Assembly: GCA_963797555.1 (NCBI GenBank) | Contig: CAWCPV010000018.1 | Location: 1 to 64,000 of the forward strand | Reading direction: 5' to 3' | From: an uncultured Gammaproteobacteria bacterium | Lineage (GTDB): Bacteria; Pseudomonadota; Gammaproteobacteria; CAWCPV01 | Length of the DNA stretch: 64,000 nucleotides | Part shown: positions 5,176-57,922 of the stretch, piece by piece | Position numbering within the stretch: the first letter of the stretch is position 1 | Layout: each line of letters begins with the position of its first letter | Translations under genes and position numbers: made by a program | The notes under the pieces: generated by a model | What the model was told of the DNA's origin: nothing | Database searches by the model: none | The model's input: the letters and a program-made list of their open reading frames with translations, nothing else

Positions 5176-5298
5176 AACACCTCCTCATTCCGCGGCAGCA
5201 CACCGCCGATATCCATAAACAACGTCGTGTTCCCCATCGCTCTTTTCATTCGGTTTCGGTCAACGCTTTCTGCCACCTTTGACAGTTCGCTTATCGAA

Positions 5299-13771: not shown

Positions 13772-14922
13772 GTGCAGTGTCTCACAAATAGCTATGCACA
13801 GATCTGCTCCATCCGGTTTCGGGCCGCGACGATCTTGCGCAGGATGTCCTCGCCCTTGGCGTTCCAAACATAGCGCTTGGGGTGGGCGTTACGCTCAGCG
13901 AGAAAGGCGATGATAGCCTCGGCGAGCGCCTTGACGGAGCCAAAGCTGCCTTCGGCGAGAAAATCGCCCAGATCGCGGAAGAACCGCTCGACCAGATTCA
14001 TCCAGGACGAAGAGGTGGGGGTGAAGTGCAGGTGCATGCGCGGGTGCTTCGCGAGCCACGCCTTGACCGCCTGATGCTTGTGGGTGGCGTAATTGTCGAG
14101 GATAAGATGGAGGTCGAGGTCCTGGGGGGTTTCCCGGTCGATGCGGCGCAGAAACGCGAGCCACTCCTGATGGCGGTGCTTGCGCGCCAGGGCGGTGGTG
14201 AGCTTGCCCTCCAAGTAGTTGAGCGCCGCGAACAGGGTGAGCGTGCCGTGACGGATGTAGTCGTGGGTGCGCGTCCTGGGCAGCCCTGGCTGGGTGCGCT
14301 CCAGCGCCTGCATCTGGGTCTTCTCGTCGCAGCAGAGCACGACCGCCTTGTCCGGGGGCGCCAGATACAGCCCGATCACGTCCCAGAATTTCGCCTCAAA
14401 GTGCTTGTCCTTGGACAGCTTGAACTGGCGGTTCAGGTGCGGCTTGATGTCATTGGCCGCCCACAGCCGCTGCACACTCGCCTTCGAGATGCCCGCGGCG
14501 GCAGCCATGGTGCGGCAGCTCCAGCGCCCCAGATGCGCCGGCGGCTTACCGACCGTCTCCAGCACCCGCCTCACCTTCGTCTGCGAGAGCCTGGGCTTGC
14601 GCCCTCGTCCGGGCGCATCCGCCAGCCCCGCCAAGCTCCGCTGCCGATAGCGCCGGCACCACTGCCCGACGCTCGCCCGCGTGGTGCCCAGCTTCGCGGC
14701 GATGGCCTTCTGATCCAGTCCTTCAACAGCCAGCAGAATGATTCTGGCGCGCTGCCGATCCCGAACTGCCACCGTGTGCGAACGCACTCGACGCTGCAGC
14801 TCTTGCGCCTCTTCTGGCAATACCTCCAGGGACATCCTCCTCATGGCTCCCGCCTCCCAGTGCCCGTACTTCCAGTATGGCACCAGTCCGGCATAAGTAA
14901 AGGCATTTGTGAGACACTGCAC
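13772..14922 (-). mobile_element. IS630-family element A
   Basis: IRs GTGCAGTGTCTCACAAAT / ATTTGTGAGACACTGCAC, flanking TA duplication. Confidence 0.92.
13792..14844 (-). CDS. IS630 transposase
   Basis: HTH, CCDEK, THDYIRHGT, ILDNYATHK, TPTSSSWMNLVERFF. Confidence 0.9.
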   Translation of the reverse strand: MRRMSLEVLPEEAQELQRRVRSHTVAVRDRQRARIILLAVEGLDQKAIAAKLGTTRASVGQWCRRYRQRSLAGLADAPGRGRKPRLSQTKVRRVLETVGKPPAHLGRWSCRTMAAAAGISKASVQRLWAANDIKPHLNRQFKLSKDKHFEAKFWDVIGLYLAPPDKAVVLCCDEKTQMQALERTQPGLPRTRTHDYIRHGTLTLFAALNYLEGKLTTALARKHRHQEWLAFLRRIDRETPQDLDLHLILDNYATHKHQAVKAWLAKHPRMHLHFTPTSSSWMNLVERFFRDLGDFLAEGSFGSVKALAEAIIAFLAERNAHPKRYVWNAKGEDILRKIVAARNRMEQICA

Positions 14923-19133: not shown

Positions 19134-22100
19134 ATGTTTCTACGGGCCACGACTCGGAAGAAAGACGGCAAGGAGCACCGTTACTGGAGTATTGTCGAGA
19201 ATAGGCGCCTGAGCGGTGGGCGCGTGCTGCAACGGCATGTGCTGTATTTGGGTGAGATCAACCTGGATCCGTGACTTGAATCTCCGAGCGCCCGGGGCGC
19301 GAGAGAATGGGAGCTATTCTCAGTTGAGTTGGTTAGTTTTTAGCCAACCGGTGACGCCGGCTATGTACAGCGGGCGTAGACCCTCGTCGGCGCAGGAGTG
19401 ACGGCGGGGCTTTGAGGCTTGGACGCTGAATTTCGGGCGTAGGTTTACACCGGGGTCTGGTGAGGCCCGGGTCGAGTTTCTATGGAGGTCGTCCTAGCTA
19501 CCCGAAGGCGAGTTGGTAATACACCTGCTCGAAGGCGCGGAAGCCGGGACAGAGCCGGCTGAAGCGCAGCTTCAGTCTGCGGGCGGTGGCGACCAACCGG
19601 GCGGCGAGGTACATCAGTTCCTGGAGGACGGTCTTGATCCGCCGGCGCTTGGCCGGATGGCGCAGGGGAGCCGACTCGCCGGTCAGCCCGATGAGCCCGA
19701 TGAAGCGCAGGATGTTGTAGGCGAACACGGCAAAGGCGAGCACCAGGTCATTGGTGTCGAATTTCCCGGAGGGCAGCCGTTCGATATCGAGGTCGGTCTT
19801 GAACTCGCTGTGGAACTGCTCGGAGGTCCCGGTACAGGGCGACGATCTCCGCGTCCGGATAGGCGAGCGAGGTCCACCAGCCATCGAGCTCCAGCTCCGG
19901 TACCAACAGCGCCTGGCCCTTCTTGTCGATGGTGCGCTCGGTCACCCGCATCACCCGGCGAACGTGGTAGGTGTGCTCCCGATGGGGGTGCTCCTCGACG
20001 ACGCTGAACAGCGCCACGCGCTTGCCGGGTCGGGGTGTCTCCCATGCCCCTTGGCGCTCGGCGCGCTCCAGCCAATGGGCAGGGTCCTCGCCCCGAGGGT
20101 TCCACTGGATAATGAAGTCCACCTCCTCTTCGAGGTAGCGCAGCCGGTTCTCCAAGGCGTCGTGGGCGCTGTCCTGGCGCACCAGCAGCGGCAGTTTGGT
20201 CAGGCGCCTGGCCCGCGGCAGGATGCGCTCCCAGACCTAGCCGAATTCCTTCTGACTGTGCTGCTTGCCTTCTCGCAGCTCACAGCCGACGCACCACCCT
20301 TCGGTTCCCACGTAGGTCGCGATCGGCGCATAACCGTCATAGCCGTGGTAGGTGCGCGAGACTCCTTCTTGCTTGGTCCCGGAGTTGTCCATGGGAAAGA
20401 CATCGATGTCCACCGGCACATGACCGGTCTTGAGCGCACTGACCGGTGCCTTGGCGTTGACCATGAACTCGATATCGGCCTCGTCAATGACCTTACCCGC
20501 AGGACCGCTGCGTGCTCGTCGAGACGCTGCCTCAGCGTTTCTGGCGAGGGTACCCGCTCCAGCCCCAACGCCTGGCGGAAGAAATCGTCCTCTCGGACGT
20601 TGGAGACCGCTTCGAAGTCGCTCTTGCCCAAACACATCAACCCCAGATAGCTCTTGGCTACGTCTTCATGGGAGATGCCGTGGCGTAGCGGGATCGCCTG
20701 CTTCAGCGCCTTGCCCAACCCGCTAAAGCGGTTGACGCAAAGACCGACCAAGGCCAGACCAGAATGGGAGGTGTAAAATTCCTCATCGGACTGCTCCAAG
20801 ATGAACCGCTTCATCGTTCACCTGCCGGGTGAGCTGGAGTGCGGCCCGATTTTAGCTGAACTGCAATGATAAATCAGCAGGTTGCGGCCATCCGCTGAGA
20901 CGCGAAGTCACGGAATCAGGATCAACTCCTCGCAGGAGTTGGCGTGGCGCAAATCCATTGAGGTGTTCGAAGACGGGGCGCTGACACCGCGCACGATGTC
21001 GTTGTTTCCCGAGGAGCGATCTGAAGAGCTGTCGAGGGATGCTTCGGTGGTACGTTTGCGGCTGAAAGAATTGCGGCTGTGCCGACCGCGGCAGTGGGGT
21101 GCGTGTTGGCTGGCGCTGCAACTGTGGGAGGAATTGCAGTTAGATCGCTTCTGGTGGGAACGGTTAACGCCGAGTCGCAAGGGCACTCGGTGGGATCAGG
21201 TGTTATTCGTGCTCGTGGCCTATCGGTTGCTGGCACCGGGCAGCGAGTGGCGGTTGCACCGGGAGTGGTTTGGCCGTACGGCCTTGACGGATTTGCTCGG
21301 AGCGGATGCGGCGCTCTCCGACAGCCACCGGCTGTATGTCTGTCACGACCGCTTGCTGGAGCACAAGGCGGCGGTCTTTGACCATCTGGTGCGGCGGTGG
21401 CGGGATCTGTTCAATGCCACCTTCGAGGTGCTGCTCTACGACCTCACGAGCACCTACTTTGAGTGTGAGCCCCCGCAGTCGGAGCAGGACAAACGACGAT
21501 TCGGCCACTCGCGCGATAAGCGCAGGGACTGTGTGCAGGTGGTGATCGCCTGGGTGGTGACCCCGGAAGGCTTGCCCTTGGCCTATGAAGTGTTGGCGGG
21601 CAATACGGCCGACAAGACGACGTTGAAGGAGTTCCTCGCGCGCATTGAGCGTCAGTACGGAAGAGCGCAGCGGATTTGGGTGATGGACCGCGGCATTCCG
21701 ACCGAAGCGGTGCTGGAAGAGATGCGCGCAAGTCGCCCGCCAGTGCACTGACCTGGTGGGCACGCCCAAGGGGCGGCTCAGCAAATTGGAGAGCGCGCTG
21801 CTGCTCAAGCCGTGGCGGGAAGCGCGCCCCGGCGTAGCCGTGAAACTGTTGGCGCAGGATGGGGAGCTGTATGTGTACGCGCAAAGTGAACAGCGCGTGG
21901 CGAAGGAGCGTGCGATACGACGGCGCAAGCTGAAGTGGTTATGGGCGCGGTTGAAGAAACTCGCGACCATGCAGCTCACCCGCGAGCAACTGCTGATGAA
22001 GCTCGGTGCGGCGCGCCAACACGGCCCGGCGGTATGGCGCTTGGTTCAACTGGAGGTCGACCCCAAGGACGCCACGTTTAGCTACCGCCTGCGCCGCGAT

Positions 22101-25496: not shown

Positions 25497-26940
25497 GGCT
25501 CTTTCGGCAATTGTGTGGGTCGTGGTAGTCAAGTAGCATCTGCTTTCGCTTATCACAACACATCTTGTGGTTGGGGTGGTGGGCGAGAGGCCCTCGCGTG
25601 GGGCCGCTCCGCAGGACTCGTCCACAAATCCACAGGTCGTCATCCAAGGGGGGAGCACCGTGCGGCCCACGCATCTGTTTACCACGGCACTGGGCCTGAC
25701 GGTGCCTTGGGAGGTCACCGACGTGCGCTTCGACCCCGAGGCTGGGCGCATCGACCTCGATGTGGCGTTTGCCAAGGGCAGCCGCTTTGCCTGCCCGGCC
25801 TGCGGAGTGCAAGGCCAGCCGGTGCACGACACCCGGGAGCGCAGTTGGCAGCACCTGAGCTTCTTTAAGTCACGGGCGTACCTGCACGCGCATCTGCCGC
25901 GAGTGCGCTGCGAGGCCTGCGGCAAGACGACCCAGGTCGAAGCGCCGTGGGCGCGCGCACACAGTGGCTTCACGGCGCTGATGGAGGCGCTGGTGGTCAC
26001 GCTGTGCCAGGCCATGCCGGTGGCGACCGTGGCTCGGCACCTGGGTGTGGGCGATGAGCGCCTGTGGGGGGTGCTCGATCACTACGTAGGCAGTGCCCGC
26101 GCTCAGGAGGACCACTCGCAGGTGAGCGCTGTGGGCCTGGACGAGACCGCTGCCCGGCGTGAACAGCACTACATCAGCCTGTTCCATGACCTCACGGGAA
26201 AACGCCTGCTGTTCGCCTGCGAGGGCCGCGACCAGAGCACCGTGGCGGCCTTCGCCGCCGACCTCAAGGCGCACGGCGGCGACCCGCAGGCCATCGAGCA
26301 GGTGTGCATCGACATGTCCGCCGCCTACCGCGCCGGGGTGGCCAAGCATCTGCCTCAGGCTACGGTGAGCTTCGATGCCTTCCACGTGATCAAGCTCGCC
26401 AACGAGGCGGTCGACGCGGTGCGCCGCCAGGAGATCAAGACCGAGCCCGCCCTCAGAGGCACCCGCTGGACCTGGCTGGGACCAACTCACCGACTTCCAC
26501 TGGCTCTCCCGCGCCCGCCTCAAGACCGCCCGCGCCTGGCGCCTCAAGGAGGCGCTGCGCGATATCTACGCCACGGCCAGCACCCTCGAGCAGGCCGAGA
26601 GCGCCCTCGGGCGCTGGTATAGCTGGGCACGGCGTAGCCGCCTGCAGCCCATGAAACGCCTCGCCACTACCCTGAAAGAGCACTGGAACGGCATCCTCGC
26701 CGCGTTCCACTCGGGCCTCACCAACGGCCGCGCCGAGGGCATCAACTCCCTCATCCAGGCCGCCAAGGCCCGCGCCCGGGGCTACCGCACCACGCACTCG
26801 CTCATCACCATCGCCTACCTCATCGCCGGCAATCTCGCCCACCTGCCCGCCTCGCCGCTCAACACACCCGCTGGTGTCAGAGATCAGGCAGATACCCCCG
26901 CGCCATAGGCATTGCTGCCCACACGATTCCGGAAAGAGCC
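25497..26940 (+). mobile_element. ISL3-family element, copy 2 (transposase 25660-26908 broken by a small deletion near 26480)
   Basis: Ends GGCTCTTTCGGCAATTGTGTGG / CCACACGATTCCGGAAAGAGCC; 8-bp TSD CTCTATTT; close homolog of copy 1. Confidence 0.92.
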
Positions 26941-27408
26941 CTCTATTTGTCTCCCGAGGCAGTGCTGATTCTGCCGCCGTCATATGGTACCCGCACTCTG
27001 AACGTGGGCGCTCGTGCAACGCAAGAGCGGAAGATCGGGCGGCCACCAATTGGCGGCGAGAAGGGCCACCCTGGCGCCACGCTGGGGCTGGTGGACAAAC
27101 CCGACTGCACGGTGATCCTGGCGCACGTTGCTGTTCTGATCCACCGGCTGTCCTCGCCCAGCCGGGCTTCCAGTTGCTGCACCCGTCTTTGCCCTGGACC
27201 CTATCCCGAGCCCAGTCGAAGGAGCGCTTAGCGCAAGCCGAGGGACAGGCATTGGTCTCCTGGTTGCCCAGCCTCACCCAAGCCCGAGCGCTAGTGAAGC
27301 GGGCCATGCGCCAGGAAAGACCGGAGCCGATCCGGAGCTGCTGGCGGAGGCGCTGCAGAGCGCTGGCCTCGGCCGGCTGCTGCGCGGGTCAGGGCAGCCT
27401 GGCTGCTA

Positions 27409-28569
27409 GTGTAGTGCTTGGTAATTAACGGAACATATATGATCTATCGCTGTCCAGGGCTATGAAGCCAAGACAGGAGAGCACTGATGCGAGTAGCCCC
27501 GATGGTCCGACTGAGCGCGGAAGAACAGCGGAGCCTGAGGCGTGTGTCGCGTTCGAACACCACGAGTGTGAGGCTGGCCCGCCGAGCGCGCATTGTGCTG
27601 TTGGCGGCGGTGGGCATGGAGAACAAGGCCATCGCGGCGGAACTCAAGATTGGGCGTGTGCAGGTTGGGCGTTGGCGGGAGCGCTATGCGCAAGGCGGGC
27701 TGGCGGCCATCGAGTGTGACCTGCCGCGCGGAGGTCGTCAGCCCAAGGTGGATGCCGCCGAGATCGTGCGACGCACGACTCAGACCCAGCCCTTAGCAGC
27801 GACACAGTGGAGTACGCGGACCCTGGCTAAGGAAATGGGAGTGAGCGACACCACGGTGCTGCGCGTGTGGCATGCCCATGGGCTGAAGCCGCATCGTGTC
27901 GAATCCTTCAAGGTATCGCGCGACCCGAAATTCACCGAGAAGTTGGAGGACATCGTCGGGCTGTATCTGTCCCCCCCGGAGCATGCTTTGGTGTTGTGCT
28001 GCGACGAGAAGAGTCAGGTTCAGGCGCTGGATCGTACCCAACCTGGCCTGCCGCTGAAGAAGGGGCGGGCTGCGACCATGACCCATGACTACAAGCGCCA
28101 TGGCACCACGACACTGTTTGCTGCCCTGAACACCTTGGAGGGTTCCGTGATTGCCCGCTGCGAGCCGCACCATCGCCACACGGAGTGGCTCACCTTCCTG
28201 CGCCAAATCGACCGCGAGACGCCCAAGGACAAGGAACTGCACTTGGTCTGCGACAACTACGCCACCCACAAACATCCCAACGTTCAGAAATGGCTGGGAA
28301 AACACCCGCGTTTCCACATCCATTTCACGCCCACCTCAGCATCCTGGTTGAACATGGTCGAGCGATTCTTCCGCGACCTGACTGTGGATCGGTTGCGCCG
28401 TGGCGTGTTTCGAAGCGTCCCCGAGTTGATCCCTGCCATCAACCGCTATGTCGATGCCCACAACGCCAATCCCAAACCCTTCATCTGGACCGCCAAGGCT
28501 AAGGACATCCTGCAGAAGGTCATCCGCGCCAACGCACGTTTAAGTTCTAAACAGAATGAAGCACTACAC
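27409..28569 (+). mobile_element. IS630-family element B
   Basis: IRs GTGTAGTGCTT / AAGCACTACAC with TA duplication. Confidence 0.9.
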
Positions 28570-40013: not shown

Positions 40014-41960
40014 TAGGCACCCCTATCGTTCACCGGCTTGTAGGTCAGAATAGCCACCCCGTTGCCGCTTGTCTTCGAGTGAGCAAGCTGCAAGTGCTTG
40101 ATTGCCTTCCCGTCATGGAATAAACGTGCGCCGCGACCAGCGACCACAGGGTATATTTCAAGCCGCAACTCATCGAGCAGCTTTGATGCAGCAGACCTGA
40201 TTCCGTGACTTCGCGTCTCAGCGGATGGCCGCAACCTGCTGATTTATCATTGCAGTTCAGCTAAAATCGGGCCGCACTCCAGCTCACCCGGCAGGTGAAC
40301 GATGAAGCGGTTCATCTTGGAGCAGTCCGATGAGGAATTTTACACCTCCCATTCTGGTCTGGCCTTGGTCGGTCTTTGCGTCAACCGCTTTAGCGGGTTG
40401 GGCAAGGCGCTGAAGCAGGCGATCCCGCTACGCCACGGCATCTCCCATGAAGACGTAGCCAAGAGCTATCTGGGGTTGATGTGTTTGGGCAAGAGCGACT
40501 TCGAAGCGGTCTCCAACGTCCGAGAGGACGATTTCTTCCGCCAGGCGTTGGGGCTGGAGCGGGTACCCTCGCCAGAAACGCTGAGGCAGCGTCTCGACGA
40601 GCACGCAGCGGTCCTGCGGGTAAGGTCATTGACGAGGCCGATATCGAGTTCATGGTCAACGCCAAGGCACCGGTCAGTGCGCTCAAGACCGGTCATGTGC
40701 CGGTGGACATCGATGTCTTTCCCATGGACAACTCCGGGACCAAGCAAGAAGGAGTCTCGCGCACCTACCACGGCTATGACGGTTATGCGCCGATCGCGAC
40801 CTACGTGGGAACCGAAGGGTGGTGCGTCGGCTGTGAGCTGCGAGAAGGCAAGCAGCACAGTCAGAAGGAATTCGGCTAGGTCTGGGAGCGCATCCTGCCG
40901 CGGGCCAGGCGCCTGACCAAACTGCCGCTGCTGGTGCGCCAGGACAGCGCCCACGACGCCTTGGAGAACCGGCTGCGCTACCTCGAAGAGGAGGTGGACT
41001 TCATTATCCAGTGGAACCCTCGGGGCGAGGACCCTGCCCATTGGCTGGAGCGCGCCGAGCGCCAAGGGGCATGGGAGACACCCCGACCCGGCAAGCGCGT
41101 GGCGCTGTTCAGCGTCGTCGAGGAGCACCCCCATCGGGAGCACACCTACCACGTTCGCCGGGTGATGCGGGTGACCGAGCGCACCATCGACAAGAAGGGC
41201 CAGGCGCTGTTGGTACCGGAGCTGGAGCTCGATGGCTGGTGGACCTCGCTCGCCTATCCGGACGCGGAGATCGTCGCCCTGTACCGGGACCTCCGAGCAG
41301 TTCCACAGCGAGTTCAAGACCGACCTCGATATCGAACGGCTGCCCTCCGGGAAATTCGACACCAATGACCTGGTGCTCGCCTTTGCCGTGTTCGCCTACA
41401 ACATCCTGCGCTTCATCGGGCTCATCGGGCTGACCGGCGAGTCGGCTCCCCTGCGCCATCCGGCCAAGCGCCGGCGGATCAAGACCGTCCTCCAGGAACT
41501 GATGTACCTCGCCGCCCGGTTGGTCGCCACCGCCCGCAGACTGAAGCTGCGCTTCAGCCGGCTCTGTCCCGGCTTCCGCGCCTTCGAGCAGCTGTATTAC
41601 CAACTCGCCTTCGGGTAGCTAGGACGACCTCCATAGAAACTCGACCCGGGCCTCACCAGACCCCGGTGTAAACCTACGCCCGAAATTCAGCGTCCAAGCC
41701 TCAAAGCCCCGCCGTCACTCCTGCGCCGACGAGGGTCTACGCCCGCTGTACATAGCCGGCGTCACCGGTTGGCTAAAAACTAACCAACTCAACTGAGAAT
41801 AGCTCCCATTCTCTCGCGCCCCGGGCGCTCGGAGATTCAAGTCACGGATCCAGGGCAGAGATTCAACCAATGTACCGCTGCCATGCACGCCGATGTTCTT
41901 CCCAGGGCGCTGCTTCAAGGTCGTGATCGAATCGGCGAGGTTGCCTTTGAGGAGCGTCAC
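40013..41960 (-). pseudogene. Dihydrofolate reductase/RibD C-terminal family cassette gene, 5'-deleted and split by IS1380
   Basis: LKQRPGKNIGVHGSGTLVESL | LLDELRLEIYPVVAGRGARLF...GVAILTY; stop coincides with R''-like GCCTA(A). Confidence 0.82.
40196..41854 (+). mobile_element. IS1380-family element, copy 2 (defective transposase)
   Basis: Same ends and length (1659 bp) as copy 1; 5-bp TSD GCAGA. Confidence 0.92.
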
Positions 41961-41961
41961 A

Positions 41962-42022
41962 TTCCCGCTCGCTCCACGGAGCGAGTTTCGAGGCCGCGGT
42001 CTGCTGTAGCGCCGGGTTAGGT
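41962..42022 (-). other. Truncated attC site of the hydrolase cassette
   Basis: Minus strand ACCTAAC-CCGGC-GCTACAGC-AGACCGCGGC; gene stop lies inside R''; distal arm deleted. Confidence 0.7.
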
Positions 42023-42919
42023 GGTCGATTGGGTTCCAAGCATCAGGTCCTGCTGGCTCCCTGCACCTGGCATTGACAGAATTAACCGCCCCACCTGTTC
42101 AGGCTCATCCAATTGGACGAAGTGTCGAGCGCCCGGGATAAGGAATAGTTCAGACTGTGGAAGAAACTCATGGAACGTCCGGGCGACACCGCTATTCAGG
42201 GTATAATCGGCGTCGCCGAAGATGATCCGGACCGGGCGCCTGAACTCCCGCAGCCTGGGGATCTTTTCTGTGTGCGCCCTGACCATGGGCAATAGATCTT
42301 CGTTCAGGCGAAAGAAGGCAGGACGGGCACTCGGCGTGGCGTCGAACTGTTGATACAGCAGCGGCACGAATTCACGTCTGACATCCGCGTCTCGGATAAA
42401 CCTCCCGACCTGCCACCAGTACATCCGGCGGAAGATCCAATTCCCGAACATCTGCGACACATGCCTCGCGATGCTTCTGATCACCGGCGTGGAGAAGAGC
42501 CAGATCGCCTCCGGCCGCCGGAGCGTCGGCATTTCGCAGTAGTACGTGTTCAACAGCACCAACCGGGCCACCCGCTCGGGGTGGTCGAGCGCCCAGTCAA
42601 TGGCCGGCGGGCCCGAGGCGTCGTGCGCGACGAGGGTGACTTGCTCAAGCCCCAGTTGGGTGATGACCGCATCCAGGTCACCGACTTGATTGGCGGTGGT
42701 ATAAGGGTAGCCGGACGGCTTATCCGAACTGCCCCACCCGAGAAAATCAAATGTGACGACTCGGCGCGGCGGCGAAAGGTGAGGGAGCAGACGGTCGTAG
42801 AGGTGCATATTGTCCGGGAACCCGTGCATCAGAATGATCGGCGGTTCCGCCCCCGGATGGTCGCGGACGTAGATCCGGTGTCCGTTCCGCTGCACAAGAG
42901 TCTCTTGGTAGACCATCAT
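42017..42919 (-). CDS. Alpha/beta fold hydrolase (haloalkane dehalogenase/epoxide hydrolase-like), first cassette of the left array
   Basis: LMHGFPD, DFLGWGSSDKP, VAHDASG, ARHFVQLDEPE. Confidence 0.9.
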   Translation of the reverse strand: MMVYQETLVQRNGHRIYVRDHPGAEPPIILMHGFPDNMHLYDRLLPHLSPPRRVVTFDFLGWGSSDKPSGYPYTTANQVGDLDAVITQLGLEQVTLVAHDASGPPAIDWALDHPERVARLVLLNTYYCEMPTLRRPEAIWLFSTPVIRSIARHVSQMFGNWIFRRMYWWQVGRFIRDADVRREFVPLLYQQFDATPSARPAFFRLNEDLLPMVRAHTEKIPRLREFRRPVRIIFGDADYTLNSGVARTFHEFLPQSELFLIPGARHFVQLDEPEQVGRLILSMPGAGSQQDLMLGTQSTT

Positions 42920-42948
42920 TCCCTCTGGAAGCAATGTCGCCTACCGAA

Positions 42949-43005
42949 TAGCATTTTATCCGTCGTGCGGCAGCATGATGGATAAAATGTGTTGAACTGA
43001 ACCGC
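42949..43005 (-). repeat. Left 57-bp terminal inverted repeat / putative recombination site
   Basis: Exact reverse complement of 45333-45389; internal hairpin CATTTTATCC..GGATAAAATG; GGTAGGC box at 42945-42939. Confidence 0.92.
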
Positions 43006-43252
43006 CGGATTCAGGCGGCCGGCCTATGGGGATGGTATGGGGGCAGTCCCGGGTTGGGGCCGCTTGGGGTGTGGCTGGTCGGGTGGTTATGTGGTGCATG
43101 GACCGCTCTCGCGGTCTCGGTCGGGTGTGATGTCCCCCGCCAGGCACTATGGCAAAGGTGCCGTGTACGGGTCAAGGGCTGGGGAAGACCAAAGGGGACT
43201 GTGGCCGGCTTGCAGGGAAGCGGTCGAGGGAGGCTTGGGCGGGTGAGGGTCG

Positions 43253-44470
43253 TCATGAGAGCCGTGGGGGTCCGGTCGCTTTCGGGGTGGGGGGTGTAGC
43301 CCTGAGCGGTGCCCCGAGGACTACCCGCGTGAGCCGCCCTTCTGCGCAGTAGGGGCAGCGCTGGATATCGATGCCGGTGAGGCGCAGCATGGTTTCCTGC
43401 GCCGACTCCGGTTCCCGCGGTTGCGGCGCTGGCTGGCCGAGAGCCGCCCGGCACCCGTCCAGGCGCTCGGCGCGGCATCGGTTCGCCAGCAGTCCGTAAT
43501 GGCGGATACGCATGAAGCCGGGGGGGAGTACGTGGAGCAGGAAGCGGCGGATGAACTCCTCGGCCCCAAGACGCATCACCTTCACCCGATTGCCCCGGGC
43601 GTAGTCGCGGTAGCGGAAACGCACCGTGTCGTCTTCGAGATCGAGGAGCCGCTCGTGGCTGATCGCGATGCGGTGGGTATAGCGCCCGAGGTAGGCCAGC
43701 ACCTGCTCGGGACCGGCGAACGGAGGCTTGGAGTAGACCACCCAGTCCTGGGAGCGCAGCTCGGTAAGAAAACGGGCAAAGCCCGGGGGCTCGACGAGCC
43801 CCGCCAGCTCGCCGGTGAAGCGCAGCTCGCCTCGCCCGTGGGCCGCCTGCAACGCTTCCAGGTACTTGCCCCGGAACACCCGGGAGAGCGCCCGGACCGG
43901 AAACAGGAAGCCTCGCTTGGCGGGAATCCAGCGGGCGTCGACGGAGAGCGCCCCGCCGGTCACGACACAATGCACGTGGAGGTGTTGGCCGAGGTTCTGG
44001 CCCCAGGTGTGCAGCACCAGGGTCGCTCCGAGATCCCCGCCGAGCCACCGGGGATTTCTGCCGAAGCTGAGCAGCGTCTCGGAGGCGGCCTGAAACAGCA
44101 GCCCGTAAACCACCCGTGGGTTGCCCTGTGCCAGCGGGTTGAGGGTATGCGGCAAGGTGAACACCACGTGGAAGTACTCCACCGGCAAGAGTTCCGCACA
44201 GCGCGCCTGCAGCCAGTGCTCCTTGGCCAGCGTCTGGCCCTTGGGGCAGTGGCGGTTACGGCAGGAGTGGTAACGCAGCTCGATGCGCCCGCAGCGGTCG
44301 CACTGCACCGCTTGAGCGCCCAGGAGCGGCGTGCGGCAGGCCACGATGGCCCGCATCACCCGGTGCTGCTGAGCGCACAGCCGATGGGTCGCCCGGAAGC
44401 GCTCCCCGTGGGCGCGGAAGATATCCGCCACCTCCAGCCGCCGCCCCGCCGGCGCGGGACGGGTGCACAC
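43253..44470 (-). CDS. IS91-family HUH/Y2 rolling-circle transposase with N-terminal Zn-binding domain
   Basis: CRT..LG...CDRC...SCRNRHCPK, YFHVVFTLPH, LHTWGQNLGQHLHVH, YLGRYTHR, RIRHYG, CPYC. Confidence 0.93.
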   Translation of the reverse strand: MCTRPAPAGRRLEVADIFRAHGERFRATHRLCAQQHRVMRAIVACRTPLLGAQAVQCDRCGRIELRYHSCRNRHCPKGQTLAKEHWLQARCAELLPVEYFHVVFTLPHTLNPLAQGNPRVVYGLLFQAASETLLSFGRNPRWLGGDLGATLVLHTWGQNLGQHLHVHCVVTGGALSVDARWIPAKRGFLFPVRALSRVFRGKYLEALQAAHGRGELRFTGELAGLVEPPGFARFLTELRSQDWVVYSKPPFAGPEQVLAYLGRYTHRIAISHERLLDLEDDTVRFRYRDYARGNRVKVMRLGAEEFIRRFLLHVLPPGFMRIRHYGLLANRCRAERLDGCRAALGQPAPQPREPESAQETMLRLTGIDIQRCPYCAEGRLTRVVLGAPLRATPPTPKATGPPRLS

Positions 44471-44473
44471 TGC

Positions 44474-45142
44474 CTAGAACTGCGTGGGGCTCTCGGGGAT
44501 CTCCAGCAGATCGAGCGGCGAGGCGGTGCCGGTGAGATGCGGCCTTGCCAGGTGAAAGTAGCGCAGGGTAGTGCTGAGGTGCCCGTGGCCCAACAGGCGC
44601 TGGATAGTGTGCAGATCCACTCCCGCCTCCAGCAAGTGGGTGGCGAAGGCATGCCTCAGCCCGTGGATGCCGCAGCGCTTGGTGATGCCCGCCTTGCGCT
44701 TGGCTGCATAGTAAATCTTCTGGGCCGAACGCGGATCGATGGGATGCACCCCATCTCGCAGGGGAAAGAGCCAGTGCTTGGGCCGATAAGCCATCCAGTA
44801 GCGGCGAACAGCCGCTTGATCTCCTCGCGGCTCAGGATCTCGGGAAGCCTGGAGGGCTGTCGGGGGCTCGGCAGACAGAGGCTCGGCCTCGGAGCGCCCC
44901 AGGCTGACTCGGTAGAAGAACTTCAGGCCATTGGCGACGATGTTGCAGGTGCTGCTGGAAAGTCCCCGCTCCGGAAGCCCGTGCAGCAGGTAGCTCTGTA
45001 CCTCGGGCTCGGAGATCTCATCGGGGCGGCGTCGGTAGAACCTGGCCAGACCCCGGACCGCATTGAGATAAGCCTCGCGGGTGCGCACCGCCATCCCCCG
45101 CAGCACCACGTCGTTGTCCATCTTCGTGCGTAGCTCGCTCAT
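44474..45142 (-). pseudogene. Tyrosine recombinase with SAM-like N-domain (non-IntI), internal deletion plus frameshift
   Basis: [12 protein letters not shown]..., [36 protein letters not shown]; [16 protein letters not shown] is in a shifted frame and box I (GLR) is missing. Confidence 0.88.
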
Positions 45143-45332
45143 GACCGCCTCCTTTCAAGCAGTGAGTGGGAAAGACCCACGCAAAGCTTGGCAGAGCGCT
45201 CATGAGACCTCGCAAAACGTCAGGCGAAGATGGCGATCCGGCCAATGGCCGGCCGCATTACAGCGCCAAAATAGCGGAGCAGTTCAGCCAGAAACAATGC
45301 GAAAACGTCAGGGAAACGAAACCACCGCGTAA

Positions 45333-45389
45333 GCGGTTCAGTTCAACACATTTTATCCATCATGCTGCCGCACGACGGATAAAATGCTA
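45333..45389 (+). repeat. Right 57-bp terminal inverted repeat / putative attI-equivalent
   Basis: GCGGTTCAGTTCAACACATTTTATCCATCATGCTGCCGCACGACGGATAAAATGCTA, followed by GTC-GTTAGCT (45393-45399). Confidence 0.92.
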
Positions 45390-45423
45390 GTCGTTAGCTG
45401 CAGAAAGTATATCGAGGTAACAC

Positions 45424-46122
45424 ATGACGCACCATGAAGTACATAGATCACATCGCGTAGGTTGGCTGCGCGCCGCTGTTTTGGGTGCAAATGACGGCAT
45501 TGTGTCTACAGCGAGTCTTATTATTGGTGTTGCCGCTGCAAGTACCACACAAGCAAGCATTCTTCTTGCCGGCGTTGCTGGATTGGTAGCAGGAGCCATG
45601 TCTATGGCGGCTGGTGAGTATGTGTCCGTCAGTTCTCAGTCCGATACAGAGAATGCGGATCTGGCACTCGAAACGACGTCATTAGAGAACGATATAGAAT
45701 TCGAAAAAGATGAGCTCGCAAAAATATACCAAAACAGGGGCCTTGAGCTTGTTTTAGCAAAACAAGTTGCTGAACAGCTAATGGCTAACGACGCGTTAGG
45801 GGCGCACGCTCGAGATGAAATTGGTATATCGGAGAGTGTCAGTGCCCGGCCAGTTCAAGCAGCTTTTTATTCAGCCGGTACATTTACAGTCGGTGCCGCA
45901 CTACCTTTAATAGTGGCATGGGCCACACCAGGTAACTATTTAATATCAGCAGTTGCAGCTTCGTCTCTTGTATTTCTAGCACTACTTGGTGGGGTTGCTG
46001 CACGTGTGGGTGGCGCTCCAATTACTGTCGGCGCAATCAGAGTGACTTTTTGGGGTGCGCTAGCTATGGGTTTAACCGGTTTAACCGCAGTAGTAGGTCG
46101 TATATTTGATGCGGTTGCATGA
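45424..46122 (+). CDS. VIT1/CCC1-family Fe/Mn transporter, first cassette of the right array
   Basis: LRAAVLGANDGIVS, AGAMSMAAGEYVSVSSQ; visibly AT-richer than the flanks. Confidence 0.95.
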   Translation: MTHHEVHRSHRVGWLRAAVLGANDGIVSTASLIIGVAAASTTQASILLAGVAGLVAGAMSMAAGEYVSVSSQSDTENADLALETTSLENDIEFEKDELAKIYQNRGLELVLAKQVAEQLMANDALGAHARDEIGISESVSARPVQAAFYSAGTFTVGAALPLIVAWATPGNYLISAVAASSLVFLALLGGVAARVGGAPITVGAIRVTFWGALAMGLTGLTAVVGRIFDAVA

Positions 46123-46159
46123 TGAGGCATTTATCGATTGTGCGCACGTCATTAAATAC

Positions 46160-46219
46160 AGCTAACAATTGGGTAAAGTTGGCGCCAAAAACCGGCCCGA
46201 CTTACCCAGAACGTTAGAG
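46160..46219 (+). other. attC site (complete)
   Basis: R'' AGCTAAC, arms TGGGTAAAGTTGG / CCGACTTACCCA with one extra base, R' GTTAGAG. Confidence 0.9.
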
Positions 46220-46246
46220 CGCACCAATCCTCCCTATTTGCAAACT

Positions 46247-46882
46247 ATGAGCGACGAATACCAACACCCCGCTTTTCAACCACCGCCCCACCCGGATGTT
46301 GTTCTATGGCGATACATGGGTTTCGAGAAGTTCGACTGGCCAGTGAAGAATCAAAGATTGTTTATGCCATCTGCCCAGTTCTTAGGTGATCCACTCGAAG
46401 GGGTGGCACCAGCCGGCCATATAGAATGGTGGATGGATCTTGCCGAAAATGCTGAGTCCGAGGTAAAGCGTGAAATTATCGAAAACAATCGTAAAAAGCT
46501 ATCCGCGTTTGCAGAGGCCTTTCGTCCCAATTATTACGTGAGCTGTTGGCATATGAATGCCGTTGAGAGTTCGAAGATGTGGTGTGCTTACACTGAATCA
46601 TCCGAGGCAGTTGCAGTAACAACCACCTATCGTGTGCTGCGGGAAGCTCTTCCGAAATATGTTGAAATTGGCATGGTCCGTTATATAGATTACGCAAATG
46701 AGAAACTTCCGTCATTGAATATGTTCGAGTACATCACGCATAAGAACATCAACTTTTGCTTTGAGCGCGAATTGCGCGCTGTTGCCTTTCCTCCCGCCAT
46801 TGAAGAGCTAGGTGCAGGGCATTTCCAAGAACATCACTTTGAAGGGGCTAAAAGGGGCCAGGGTCGAATTATTTTGCTATGA
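46247..46882 (+). CDS. DUF2971-like cassette protein, 3' end disrupted by the RAYT element
   Basis: LWRYM..EKF, DPLEG, YVSCWHMN..ES..MW..Y, FERELRA; starts 27 nt after the attC. Confidence 0.7.
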   Translation: MSDEYQHPAFQPPPHPDVVLWRYMGFEKFDWPVKNQRLFMPSAQFLGDPLEGVAPAGHIEWWMDLAENAESEVKREIIENNRKKLSAFAEAFRPNYYVSCWHMNAVESSKMWCAYTESSEAVAVTTTYRVLREALPKYVEIGMVRYIDYANEKLPSLNMFEYITHKNINFCFERELRAVAFPPAIEELGAGHFQEHHFEGAKRGQGRIILL

Positions 46883-46898
46883 TACTAATCCTTTCTTA

Positions 46899-47972
46899 AG
46901 TAAGGCCATATCAGACAGCGTAGCAGCAATGCGGATGCATGAAAAAGCCTTTGACGATTTCTGGCAGCTTCTGGAGCCGGCGCAAAGCACCGAGGAGTTT
47001 GCTCTTGAGATCCTCTTTGCTTTCCACCCGGCGCTTGGCGACGCGGGCTTTCACATGCCCCCAAACCTGTTCGTCGGGATTGAGTTGGGGCGAGTACGGG
47101 GGGAGGAAGAACAGCTTAAGGCGCCCGTTCTGTTCGCCGATGAAGTCCTGGATCAATCGTGCCTTGTGGATGGGATGGCCATCGACGATGAGGAAGACCG
47201 GCCGGGTGGCGCCCACCAGCAGGCGCTTGAGGAATTCCTTGAACACCGCGGCGGTCACCGTCCCCTCGTGCACCATGAAGCGCAAGCCCCCGCGGGCGCT
47301 CACCGCCGAGAGCATGGCGAGCGAGAACCGCGCCCCGGTCACCGCGACCACCGGGGTCTTGCCCATCGGCGCCCAAGTGGTGCCGGCGTGGTAGTCGGAG
47401 CGCATCCCCGACTCATCCCCAAAGTAGATGGTCGCCCCCACGCGCTTGGCCTCGGCCTGGATGGCGGGAAATTGCTCTTTCTGCCAGCGCTCGACCAGCA
47501 CCGGATCGCGCTGCCAGGCACGGTAGAGCGGCTTCTGGGCAGTGAATCCCAGCACCCGCATCACCCGCCTGACGGCGGAGTCCGAAAGGCGCTTGTTGAA
47601 CCGCCGCTCGATCAACCTGCCGATGAGCGGCAGGGTCCACAGCGCAAACTCGAATCGGAACTGCTGCGGCGTGTGCTCGCGCACCGCCCCCGCCAGCCAG
47701 CGCATCTCCTCGGCGCCAAGCAGCGGCGGGCGGCCCGGGATCGGCTTGGCCAACAGCGCGTTCTGTCCCCCCGAGGCAAATGCCGAGAGCCAGCGAAACA
47801 CGGTGCGAATGTTCAACCCGAAGGCCTGCGCTACGCTCTGTACCGTCTGTCCGTGACGCACCGCTTTCACGGCTTGCTGGCGCAGCACCTGCAGGCTCCT
47901 ATGATCGAGCTTGCGCCCGTCCGATTCGCGCTTGCATTTCATGCCCCCATTGTACCAACATATGGCTTTACT
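46899..47972 (-). mobile_element. IS630-family element C (transposase 46911-47942, intact)
   Basis: IRs AGTAAGGCCATAT / ATATGGCTTTACT with TA duplication; FGDESG, IVDGHPIH, LPPYSPQLNPDEQVW. Confidence 0.92.
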
Positions 47973-47976
47973 TAAA

Positions 47977-48739
47977 ATGGACTTAGTAAGTCCATTGCCC
48001 CGCCGCCCCCGCATCCATCTTGATCGCGTACCGCTGCACATCGTGCAACGCGGGCACAACCGCCAACCGTGCTTCTTTGGCGAAGAAGATTATCAGGCAT
48101 ACCTCCACTGGTTGGGCGAAGCGTTGAAGAAAGAGCAATGCGCGCTTCACGCCTACGCGTTGATGACCAACCACGTCCACCTGCTTCTGACGCCGGAACA
48201 TGCCCAAGCGGTTCCCCGGCTAATCATTGCCTTGGGGCGGCGCTACGTGCAGTATATCAACACCACCTACCGCCGGACCGGCACCTTGTGGGATAGCCTG
48301 GGATAGCCGTTACAAATCCTCGCTGATCCAAGCCGAAACCTACTTGCTTGCCTGCCAGCGATACATCGAGCTCAACCCCGTACGGGCGGCCATGGTGGAT
48401 GATCCTGCGCATTACCGCTGGACGAGCTACCGTCACAACGCCCTGGGGCAGGTCAACCCTTGCCTTACCCCCCATCCTCTGTATCTGTCGCTGGGCAGGG
48501 ATGCGAAGGAAAGGCAAGCTGCCTACCGGAGCCTGTTCCGGGCGCAACTGGACCAAGAAGCGGTCAACGACCTACGGCTGGCGCTCAATCAGAATCAGCC
48601 TTTGGGCAATGCACGGTTTTATGCCAACATTGAGGCAGCGACCGGCCAACGGCGGGAGCCGAAGCCGCGAGGCAGGCCACGTGCCAGGCGAGACGACTCC
48701 GCCGCGCATGACCCAGGTCAGGGAGAGCTGGCGGTATGA
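47977..48739 (+). pseudogene. RAYT / IS200-like Y1 HUH transposase, frameshifted by a 10-bp duplication
   Basis: PRRPR..HIVQRGHNRQPCF, YALMTNHVHLL, GTLWDS|RYKS, YIELNPVRA, YRWTSY. Confidence 0.9.
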
Positions 48740-48812
48740 ATCCAGCTTTATGCAGCAGAAATATGCGAGCCTGGCCCCTTTAATCGCTGTTCACATCACC
48801 TTGGAGATCGTC

Positions 48813-49190
48813 ATGAAATATCTGCTTGTTCTCGCAACTCTTGTGGCAAGCGGTACGGCATCAGCTGCGAGGCTGCCGTGCTCAATCCACGCCAAGACGG
48901 GCGCTTCCGCAGCCACGCTCCAGAGCCTTAGCAAAATATCGATCGAACAAGCACGGGCAACTGCTCTCTCCGCCGTCGGTGCACAATCGACGGCGGTGGC
49001 CGAGGGGGAGCTTGAAGCCGAGCACGGTTGTCTTGTCTACTCGTTCGACATCCGTCTCTCTCCTCAGGCTACTGGGGTAGAGGAGGTCATGGTCGATGCT
49101 GGTAACGGCAAGGTGTTGTCGCATAAGCATGAAACACCGCAGCAAGAAGCCACTGAGAAAGCTAAGGATGCAGCTGCTAGTCACAAGTAG
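48813..49190 (+). CDS. PepSY-domain secreted protein (cassette gene)
   Basis: Signal peptide; ISIEQARATAL, ELEAEHGCLVYSFDI, EVMVDAGNGKVL; attC follows. Confidence 0.85.
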   Translation: MKYLLVLATLVASGTASAARLPCSIHAKTGASAATLQSLSKISIEQARATALSAVGAQSTAVAEGELEAEHGCLVYSFDIRLSPQATGVEEVMVDAGNGKVLSHKHETPQQEATEKAKDAAASHK

Positions 49191-49218: not shown

Positions 49219-49314
49219 GCCCAACCCTGCGCTCCAGCCGACGGGCACGCCTTCGGCGTGCATTCCCTCACAACGCTGCGCGTTGTTCGGCGCGGCTGAG
49301 CTTGATCGTTCGGC
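49219..49314 (+). other. attC site (complete)
   Basis: R'' GCCCAAC, L'' GCTCCAGC, L' GCTGAGC, R' GTTCGGC. Confidence 0.85.
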
Positions 49315-57200: not shown

Positions 57201-57922
57201 CTAATTATTCTGCCCGTGATCCCCGTGTCCCTGATCCCCGTGTCCCTGATCCCCGTGTCCTGAGCCCCATGTCCCTGAGCCCCATGTCCCTGAGCCCCGT
57301 GTCCCTGAGCCCCGTGTCCCTGAGCCCCATGTCCCTGAGCCCCATGTCCCTGAGGTCCGTAAATCTGAGATCCGTGCCCCTGAGATCCGTAACTCTGCTG
57401 ATCCCCGTGCCCGTGATCCCCGTGCCCGTGATCCCCGTGCCCCTGAGACCTGTAACCCTGAGATCCATGCCCCTGAGCCCGGTAACTCTGAGATCCGTGC
57501 CCGTAATGCCCGTGATCCCCTCTTCTGCGGTAATCCTTGTCCCATTGCCCATAAGGGATGTGCCGTTCTTTCCCGTAGCGGGTCCGGTAATCCCTCGGAA
57601 CGCGGAACACTGGGGCGGGTACGTAACGGCGCTCCACGGTCCCCCACGGCCCGTTGTACGCGCGCGCACGGTACCACCGGTCCCCGCGCGGAGACCACCA
57701 CCAGCCGTTGTAGAAGAAGACGTCGAAGTTCAATTGCGGCACGAAATAGACCTGGGAATTGGGGACCAGGACTACCGCCGGCGGTTCGGCGACCATGATC
57801 GGCGGGGGGCCGAGGTTGATGCTGATGCTCACTTGCGCCTCCGCCTCCCGAGTCCCGCCACAGACGAACAGCGCGCAGAGAATCGCAGCCGATACCGATA
57901 CGCCGTACCTATGTCCTCGCAT
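57201..57922 (-). CDS. Secreted protein with His/Gly-rich pentapeptide repeat tail (apparent frameshift near 57260)
   Basis: RBS GGGAG, signal peptide, VSISINLGPPP..FFYNGWWW..WY..YNGPW; GHG(A/S/D)(Q/H) repeats. Confidence 0.78.
57215..57520. repeat. 15-bp coding tandem repeat
   Basis: CCCTGAGCCCC(A/G)TGT and CCC(T/G)TGATCCCCGTG-like units repeated many times. Confidence 0.9.

Follow-up and report, generated by a model that had tools for sequence, protein, structure and literature searches.

A VIT-family integron cassette joined at its exact G|TT boundary to the hairpin end of an ISAzo26-group insertion sequence

Introduction

How does an integron gene cassette come to begin, to the base, at the end of an insertion sequence (IS)? 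The question is raised by a 64,000-nt stretch of DNA from an uncultured member of the Gammaproteobacteria (GenBank assembly GCA_963797555.1, contig CAWCPV010000018.1, positions 1 to 64,000; hereafter the window), in which a cassette with a VIT-family metal transporter gene, the VIT1 cassette, directly follows the hairpin end of an IS91-family element of the ISAzo26 group. A first-pass annotation of the window held that the terminal repeat of this element had been used as an integration site by a circular cassette. The analysis reported here confirms the underlying observation and partly supports the interpretation that was placed on it. The cassette and its base-exact joint to the IS end are real. 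The joint most likely, with somewhat better than even confidence, arose because the IS homes to the GTT foot of attC-type hairpins, and the junction at 45393/45394 would then be the footprint of an older IS end.

The VIT1 cassette and its boundaries

The VIT1 cassette is 820 nt long and lies on the plus strand at 45394-46213, as defined by a Pfam match, its boundaries and the fold of its attC. It consists of a 30-nt leader that starts at 45394, an open reading frame (ORF) of 232 amino acids encoding a VIT family Fe/Mn transporter (45424-46122; Pfam VIT1, 6.3e-63), and a 61-nt attC (46159-46219), the last 6 nt of which are part of the next cassette. The first-pass annotation had noticed that the 8-mer GTTAGCTG at 45393-45400 returns as its exact reverse complement CAGCTAAC at 46159-46166. 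This pair was confirmed, and a search of both strands determined that the 8-mer has no further match in the window; the two sites are 766 nt apart with one ORF between them, and 0.93 matches are expected by chance over the whole window. The attC folds in the canonical bottom-strand form, which features a CTAAC/GTTAG R box, unpaired spacers of 3 and 2 nt, a small loop, and an L box of 9 bp with one extrahelical (bulged) T. Its boxes read AGCTAAC (R'') and GTTAGAG (R'), with 3/4 degenerate positions in each. The unit has an attC with its boxes, a G|TT start that is complementary to its own R'', and recurrence elsewhere, and it is an ordinary mobile integron cassette. An intI with an attI is not present upstream of it, and no intI was found in the 64-kb window.

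The cassette is richer in A and T than the host sequence, as had been claimed, with a guanine-plus-cytosine (GC) fraction of 0.485 compared with 0.632 for the window. The corresponding values are 0.471 for the fragment of the next cassette and 0.661 for the IS, and the cassette DNA appears as a GC dip at 45.4-46.9 kb within the GC-rich window. A second copy of the VIT1 attC sequence was not found in its own genome, and the site therefore lies outside the host's own attC family.

The same cassette is found in other genomes and in metagenomes. Of 80 loci retained for relatives of the VIT protein the 10 closest were inspected; the leader and the boundary are common to two of these 10 (L020 and L019), and the other 8 have unrelated flanks. 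In L020, from a Halomonas sp. (VIT protein 83% at the amino acid level), the cassette has the same 30-nt leader, starts at ...AAAACTG|TTAGCTG and has an identical R'' (CAGCTAAC). Next comes a GNAT cassette, which starts with TTAAATTTT in agreement with its own R'' AAAATTTAAC, and then a third cassette. In L019 (87%) the cassette starts with GTCAGCTG and the attC is homologous but decaying. The upstream DNA of both loci is unrelated to the window, with homology that stops before the repeat, and marine metagenome contigs match the cassette from 45393 or 45397 onward with different DNA upstream. The first-pass annotation had reasoned that homology running past 45393 into the repeat would speak against a cassette boundary. 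No such homology was seen in L020, L019 or the marine contigs, and these loci, together with the attC fold, establish the unit as a true cassette with exact G|TT boundaries. Its suggestion that the cassette might recur with identical boundaries in bona fide integrons holds for the boundaries, which are shared by L020, L019 and the marine contigs, and not for the integron context of L020, where intI is not adjacent to the array, a panE-like gene lies upstream and intI is located elsewhere in that genome. A BLAST search of plasmids with 45333-46900 returned 154 records that match the VIT coding part only, at 60-80% identity (73.1% for the best-ranked record), and did not find the same cassette. 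The host's order contains this genome only, and a search at that level could offer neither relatives nor an empty site.

Two features of the DNA that precedes the cassette elsewhere were also observed. The 500 nt upstream of the Halomonas cassette (L020 1974-2474) contain two copies of AACGCGCATGCGCAT. The ends directly before the cassette in the marine contigs and in L020 are similar (..ATTAAACT|G and ..ATAAAACT|G), and they may represent a shared upstream attC or attI-like end.

The IS91-family element upstream of the cassette

The DNA upstream of the G|TT is the hairpin end, here called the tip, of an ISAzo26-group IS91-family IS. On the minus strand the element encodes a full-length Y2 (HUH) transposase of 405 amino acids (43253-44470), which is matched in Pfam by Y2_Tnp (PF04986, 1.8e-63) and Zn_Tnp_IS91 (PF14319, 1.7e-28) and in NCBIfam by NF033538 transpos_IS91 with 444.5 bits, the cut-off being 125. 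Its best plasmid relatives are 52-55% identical, and one of them is named ISAzo26 family. A second minus-strand gene (44474-45142) encodes a tyrosine recombinase of 222 amino acids with Pfam matches to Phage_int_SAM_4 and Phage_integrase, the latter at profile positions 82-169 only. Relative to the copies termed C4a and C4b this gene has an internal deletion of 186 nt that takes away the first half of the catalytic domain, and to judge from its sequence the recombinase is probably inactive. The recombinase is also damaged elsewhere in the genome: the C-terminal part is lost in the C4 copies and the C17 copy is rearranged. The best NCBIfam match of the IS recombinase is the integron integrase model TIGR02249, with 99.6 bits under a cut-off of 265. 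In an alignment the IS recombinases share 32-37% identity with the true IntI of the host and show gaps at its extra segments. With a TIGR02249 score below the cut-off and the IntI-specific additional domain absent from the alignment, the IS recombinase is not an IntI.

Three further full copies of the IS are present in the genome (C17, C4a and C4b). C17 is 99.8% identical to the window IS over their common parts (2364 aligned nt, in which 3 substitutions and 1 gap are seen), and the IS body in the window is therefore taken to be recent; C4a and C4b are 88-93% identical. All three copies end at ...GCGGTTyAGTTCAAC, which corresponds to window position 45347, and have unrelated flanks beyond it, and in all three the hairpin tip is present only downstream of the transposase gene. 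Because these copies end at 45347 and have a tip at one end, the sequence at 45348-45393 in the window is an extra inverted tip. The element shows a Y2 transposase with an N-terminal zinc-binding domain, an upstream tyrosine recombinase and the end sequences of the IS91/ISAzo26 group. The dissimilar ends without long inverted repeats that belong to the IS91 family are not seen in the window copy, which has inverted ends of 65 nt (42941-43005 and 45333-45397) that are 97% complementary with 2 mismatches. The window copy is read as an IS plus an orphan tip and not as the normal family form. The first-pass annotation was right that the upstream partner of the cassette is neither a canonical attC nor an intI-linked attI, as it is a terminal hairpin repeat of the IS. 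The 65-nt repeat that it described as the element's terminal repeat is real, and the part that did not stand is the right arm as an ordinary end of the element.

The hairpin tip

The IS's own tip, which is distal to the transposase, lies on the minus strand at 42941-42990. It features a hairpin CATTTTATCC...GGATAAAATG and the end ...GCTATTCG, followed by GTAGGCGAC, and the same tip end is found in copies C17, C4a, C4b and C8. In C4a the outer half of the tip carries a tandem duplication of 26 nt (C4:566296-566327). Next to the tip in the window is a 15-nt inverted repeat (42991-43005; GCGGTTCAGTTCAAC on the minus strand), and the matching recombinase-proximal repeat of 15 nt, on the plus strand at 45333-45347, forms the start end of the IS. 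The base at 45339 in this start end is C, as in tip-proximal repeats, and the equivalent base is T in all other start ends examined (C17, C4a, C4b, the C7:296331 fragment and L110). The C at 45339 therefore puts the fusion either inside GCGGTT or to the left of it, and a simple insertion does not give this layout. The orphan inverted tip is 46 nt long (45348-45393, plus strand), its last base, G45393, is the G of the G|TT, and it has one mismatch to the other tips (GCTAGTCG vs GCTATTCG).

The tip folds with -14.5 kcal/mol (z -4.85) on the better-folding strand vs -10.2 kcal/mol on the top strand, and the hairpin is lengthened by G-T pairs on one strand. An alignment of 10 tips revealed compensatory changes at 5 of the 17 stem pairs, which was matched in none of 500 shuffles. 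One pair is A-C on the top strand throughout the 10 sequences and G-T on the opposite strand. The hairpin is thus under conservation as a structure. The flank pattern of an attC, GTTCAAC...hairpin...G|TT, is present at the IS end (45333-45393 plus the TT at 45394-45395) and in all 10 aligned tips. As an attC fold, the tip amounts to an 18-bp hairpin in which a paired R box and a bulged base were not found, and the spacing between stem and boxes is 6 nt vs 1 nt. A heuristic attC scan found the VIT1 attC and did not pick up the tip. The motif GCGGTTCAGTYCAAC of this IS end is present in 9 of 401 genomes of the class, including this one.

What adjoins tips and start ends across the family

The sample of tips numbers 16, with 6 from this genome, 1 from a metagenome (L111), 4 from G250, 1 from G036, 3 from G041 and 1 from G142. 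L110, whose contig ends 7 nt past the tip, was not counted, nor were five motif matches without a recognisable tip end, which include one from G041 and one from G309. The metagenome scan for the loop pattern of the tip is a small sample that returned two loci (L110 and L111), and some tip loci have under 1.2 kb of downstream sequence. A cassette start was scored where the exact reverse complement of the 8 nt from the last G of the tip is found within 1.4 kb and heads an attC. By this test a cassette starts right after the tip in 8/16 cases, with 60-880 nt between the tip-adjacent 8-mer and its downstream reverse complement, compared with 11/406 control GTT sites of the same loci. The count is 6/12 when the unpublished genomes G041 and G142, which contribute 4 tips and 2 of the 8 positives, are left out. 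The aligned tips are conserved up to ...TTCG, which is followed by TT, or by GT in two identical copies, and then by variable sequence (AGCTG, AGAGG, AGGCA, AGCCA, AAAGT). In a marsh metagenome many tips end at positions equivalent to 45394-45397 with differing DNA beyond, and one contig bridges the tip-VIT1 joint (45370-45614) with 3 differences in 245 nt.

Examination of 11 IS start ends gave a mixed picture. The start end at C7:296331 lies on a clear attC (C7:296216-296337; ACCTAAC ... GGC G|TTGAAC), and the preceding cassette has matching ends. Attached to the start ends of C4a and of L136, from the unpublished G041, is an attC-like site. The start end of the window IS adjoins the inverted tip, and an inverted tip is also found at each of L138 and L140; outside this window the arrangement comes from the unpublished genome G142 only, to which both loci belong. 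Nothing recognisable adjoins the start ends of C4b, C17, L110, L137 (G250) and L139 (G309, unpublished). ISAzo26 itself has a perfect palindrome against its start end. With start ends on the GTT foot of an attC, insertion of the IS at an existing cassette boundary gives the same sequence as is seen here. The precise joint is the usual geometry of the family, and it is therefore by itself no evidence of cassette capture.

Origin of the joint

The favoured explanation is that the HUH single-strand transposase would place the IS beside DNA hairpins, at their GTT/AAC foot, and chiefly beside those of attC sites. After insertion the IS start (GTTGAAC...) would abut the hairpin, and the attC-like end of the IS (RYYYAAC, hairpin, ...G) would replace the attC before the next cassette, by which each insertion would recreate a perfect G|TT plus cassette joint. 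The IS would end up between an attC and the following cassette, and its tip would mimic the lost attC boundary. In the window, the joint would be the footprint of an older IS end and the present, recent IS body would lie inverted against that older tip, which would account for the 65-bp terminal inverted repeat. The geometry fits an HUH enzyme that acts on single strands and cuts at AAC/GTT next to a hairpin; IS91 requires a flanking GTTC/CTTG tetranucleotide. Homing needs no IntI and, on the sequence evidence, fits a tip that is without the features that IntI reads. A transposase-driven event is also favoured by an intact transposase gene in an IS whose recombinase is damaged and without the IntI-specific insertion. 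The bridging marsh contig and the near-identity to C17 suggest a greater age for the tip-VIT1 joint than for the IS body.

The left side of the IS has a bearing on this explanation. An alpha/beta-hydrolase gene (42017-42934, minus strand; Pfam Abhydrolase_1, 2.8e-28) begins 10 nt from the last base of the IS's own tip and is probably a minus-strand cassette that begins right after that tip. The stop of the gene overlaps CACCTAAC and the 5' half of a host-family attC, and the start of the unit, GGTAGGCG, matches the reverse complement of CACCTAAC at 6/8 positions. Formal removal of the IS (42945-45347) leaves ...GTCGCCTA(A/C)C-hairpin-G|TTAGCTG, an orphan hairpin with a cassette-like gene running from each foot in mirrored fashion.

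Several routes to this layout were considered and rejected. If the IS body had merely been inverted between its repeats, tips would still be needed on both sides, and the layout is not accounted for. Two complete inverted copies that underwent homologous recombination would each keep one tip, which leaves the double tip unexplained. Had the present IS entered the repeat of the older end, the older repeat and body would be expected past the IS's own tip, where GTAGGCGAC and the hydrolase gene are found and not an older IS repeat or body. A panhandle fill-in, in which the repeats pair in a single strand and the 3' end copies the tip, would explain the C at 45339 and is speculation; the orphan tip differs from its presumed template at one base.

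There are some discrepancies between homing and the observations. The window layout is not a simple insertion, and the cassette-like genes that diverge from both tips are more directly explained by cassette capture. The exact signature is missing at 8/16 tips, although 2 of those have a 7-nt match. In no IS copy of the genome do both flanks look as if the element had simply inserted into one attC: the tip of C4b is followed by a cassette start, but its start end has no attC; the start end of C4a adjoins an attC-like site, but its tip is joined to the middle of a gene; and C17 has neither an attC at its start end nor a cassette start at its tip. Two identical copies (the left end in the window and C17) have GGT in place of GTT after the tip, and given these copies, which have similar next bases, the exact cut position is ambiguous. 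As far as the bases of the joint go, neither the direction of the event nor the responsible enzyme can be read from them.

The mirrored genes also belong to the case for the process that the first-pass annotation proposed, in which the host IntI would have used the IS hairpin as a surrogate attC, attI or attG-type site, with VIT1 or a two-cassette circle integrating at the G|TT. This is possible but doubtful. The joint is at the canonical position, a full IntI is encoded in the genome (C7:47556-48500), the cassette is foreign in composition and is an independent unit elsewhere with other neighbours, and the geometry of cassette, inverted tip and IS start is found twice more, in the unpublished G142 only. 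Cassette integration at non-attI genomic sites, termed attG, has been published (Loot et al. 2024, as cited in PMC12614218). The tip, however, has neither extrahelical bases nor R-box pairing, its two spacers are unequal (6 nt vs 1 nt), real attC sites adjoin IS start ends, and an IS insertion at an attC yields the same geometry automatically, whereas recurrence at 8/16 tips would demand capture at very many tips. With a joint that recurs in this way and a tip that lacks attC features, use of the repeat as an integration site is not demonstrated. The more general idea that hairpin ends of the IS, even as orphans, are working recombination sites at which an integrase adds cassettes at the G|TT is regarded as unlikely.

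It is more improbable still that the IS itself moves as a cassette, with a rolling-circle single-stranded circle integrated by a tyrosine recombinase, its own or IntI, through recombination of tip and attC. The IS start TTGAAC matches the RYYYAAC box of the tip, GTTCAA|C, in a cassette-like logic, the best NCBIfam match of the IS recombinase is the integron integrase, below threshold, and the orientation of the IS is always the same as that of the array. The recombinase has no IntI-specific domain, however, and it is damaged in the C4 copies, in C17 and in the window; despite the broken enzyme the last two have moved recently, as their near-identity indicates. In L110 and L111 the start (TTGAAC) and the tip box (GTCCAAC) are not an exact match, and copies are also found outside arrays (C17, and ISAzo26 on a plasmid). 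One-ended transposition is established for IS91 and ISCR, and by such read-through the tip, VIT1 and the cassette-2 fragment could have been carried as a passenger of the IS, with a joint that was made in another genome. The AT-rich sequence at 45348-46843 does lie exactly past the termination end of the IS and stops abruptly in cassette 2. Its right border (TTTGAA|GGGGCT, ~46843) has no AAC/GTT-type cut sequence and is not termination-like, the border coincides with the end of a host repeat with at least seven other copies, which can by itself explain the truncation, and host-type attC sites continue rightward; the passenger origin is very improbable. Coincidence of the 8-bp complementarity and of its place beside the repeat, for which the 0.93 matches expected in the window might be cited, is refuted by independent homologous cassettes with the same boundary, by the canonical attC, and by a joint that recurs at 8/16 tips vs 11/406 controls, and it retains next to no probability.

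The surrounding array and the host integrons

The VIT1 cassette sits in a decayed array without a local integrase. It is followed on the plus strand by a second cassette (46214-46843), the ORF of which starts at 46247 and had no match in Pfam and NCBIfam searches (46247-46843). The search for homologues of this ORF found 183, mostly of 253-263 amino acids and on short metagenome contigs, and an alignment of 7 sequences showed that homology stops at residue ~199-200 (~46843). As homology ends there and a host repeat runs from 46844, cassette 2 is truncated and no attC is left. This host multi-copy repeat element (46844-48781) has inverted repeats at 46851-46878 and 48754-48781, contains an IS200-like gene remnant, and forms the right border of the AT-rich cassette DNA. 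At least seven other copies are present (C4:649957, C4:651414, C4:563875, C4:564675, C2:122716, C2:124798 and C14:57288). The gene remnant is a candidate RAYT-type gene, named from its reading frame and not confirmed by a family search. The repeat element has conserved ends (..AAAGGGGCCAGGGTCGAATTATTTTGCT..), the window copy has an apparent frame break, and the element is flanked by a direct near-repeat, ACATCACTTTGAAG vs ACATCACCTTGGAG, that matches at 12/14 positions. It is split by an IS630-like element (~46897-47975) with a minus-strand DDE_3 transposase (46911-48059).

To the right of the repeat element are a PepSY-domain ORF (48816-49190, plus strand) and a host-family attC (49219-49314, plus strand), followed by a VOC-family ORF, and the cassette array runs to ~50.1 kb. 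Core genes start at ~50846 and include those for 5-formyl-tetrahydrofolate cyclo-ligase, zapA, pepP and a ubiH-like gene. The host's true intI is located at C7:47556-48500 (TIGR02249, 502.5 bits) within a complete integron (C7:43755-48500) that has at least five attC-like sites upstream of intI. A second locus (C3:989296-992462) has a truncated intI (C3:989422-989835) and two attC-like sites.

The window contains other repeats. An inverted pair of 1659-nt elements (19262-20920 and 40196-41854) is 100% identical and its ORFs have no Pfam match; the copy at 40196-41854 splits a gene whose 3' part resembles, by frame reading only, a RibD_C/dihydrofolate-reductase-type C-terminus. Inverted repeats of 833 and 471 nt with 91% complementarity lie ~19-21 kb apart at 5293-6617 and 25645-26946, additional diverged repeats are found at 13828-14424 and 27907-28524, and a run of 15-nt tandem repeats extends over 57215-57528.

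Relation to known systems

The window array resembles attC clusters that have no integron integrase (CALIN) in its single promoterless ORF, its attC with R''/L''/L'/R' boxes and an extrahelical base, its G|TT boundaries, and the presence of the same cassette in other arrays with other neighbours. It differs in having neither intI nor attI in the window, in being decayed, with a truncated cassette 2 and insertions of the IS630-like, repeat-element and IS91-type kinds, and in having a first cassette that is preceded by an IS end in place of an attC. The window IS is like ISAzo26 (NC_006824.1; "IS91-like element ISAzo26 family transposase" in the Prokaryotic Genome Annotation Pipeline, PGAP) in the order of a recombinase gene and then a Y2/Zn-finger transposase gene, in its start end GTTGRACTAAACCGC, and in its other end with the inverted repeat GCGGTTCAGTYCAAC and then a hairpin. 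Unlike ISAzo26, with which protein identity is 52-55%, the window element and its relatives are found at exact cassette boundaries, and the window copy has a second inverted tip and 65-bp terminal inverted repeats.

IS1111-attC elements and group IIC-attC introns occupy a fixed position and orientation in attC sites and use a DEDD transposase and a reverse transcriptase. They are like the window IS as mobile elements that target attC sites and unlike it in their unrelated enzymes. To our knowledge, neither has an attC-like end that recreates a cassette boundary. Both are named as attC-targeting in PMC9229058, which also holds a passing remark on ISShvi3. A literature search for an attC target rule of IS91-type elements found no description beyond that ISShvi3 remark, as far as the accessible text of PMC9229058 goes. 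Integration at attG or other secondary sites is similar in that the G|TT joint links a cassette to something other than an attI or attC site; the partner here is an IS end, conserved and structured, which is seen again beside many different cassettes. One-ended transposition of ISCR and IS91 elements likewise involves a rolling-circle element with foreign DNA past its termination end, but the far border here is not termination-like and the adjoining DNA is a cassette array with a base-exact first boundary.

Implications

The cassette itself is ordinary. What makes the locus interesting is an IS end that substitutes for an attC, together with the orphan inverted copy of that end and the cassettes in mirror image. 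A practical point is that a base-exact cassette joint beside such an IS end is expected and, alone, is not evidence of capture. In many bacteria, integron arrays form the principal reservoir of mobile adaptive genes. Their attC sites are the specialised target of two known kinds of parasite, and an attC-homing rolling-circle IS with a look-alike end would be a third. Such an IS could split, invert and move parts of arrays and, if its end is recombinogenic, could found arrays elsewhere. The tips would in that case be portable docking sites for new cassette arrays outside integrons, and the window would hold two arrays that grow as mirror images from the tips of one element.

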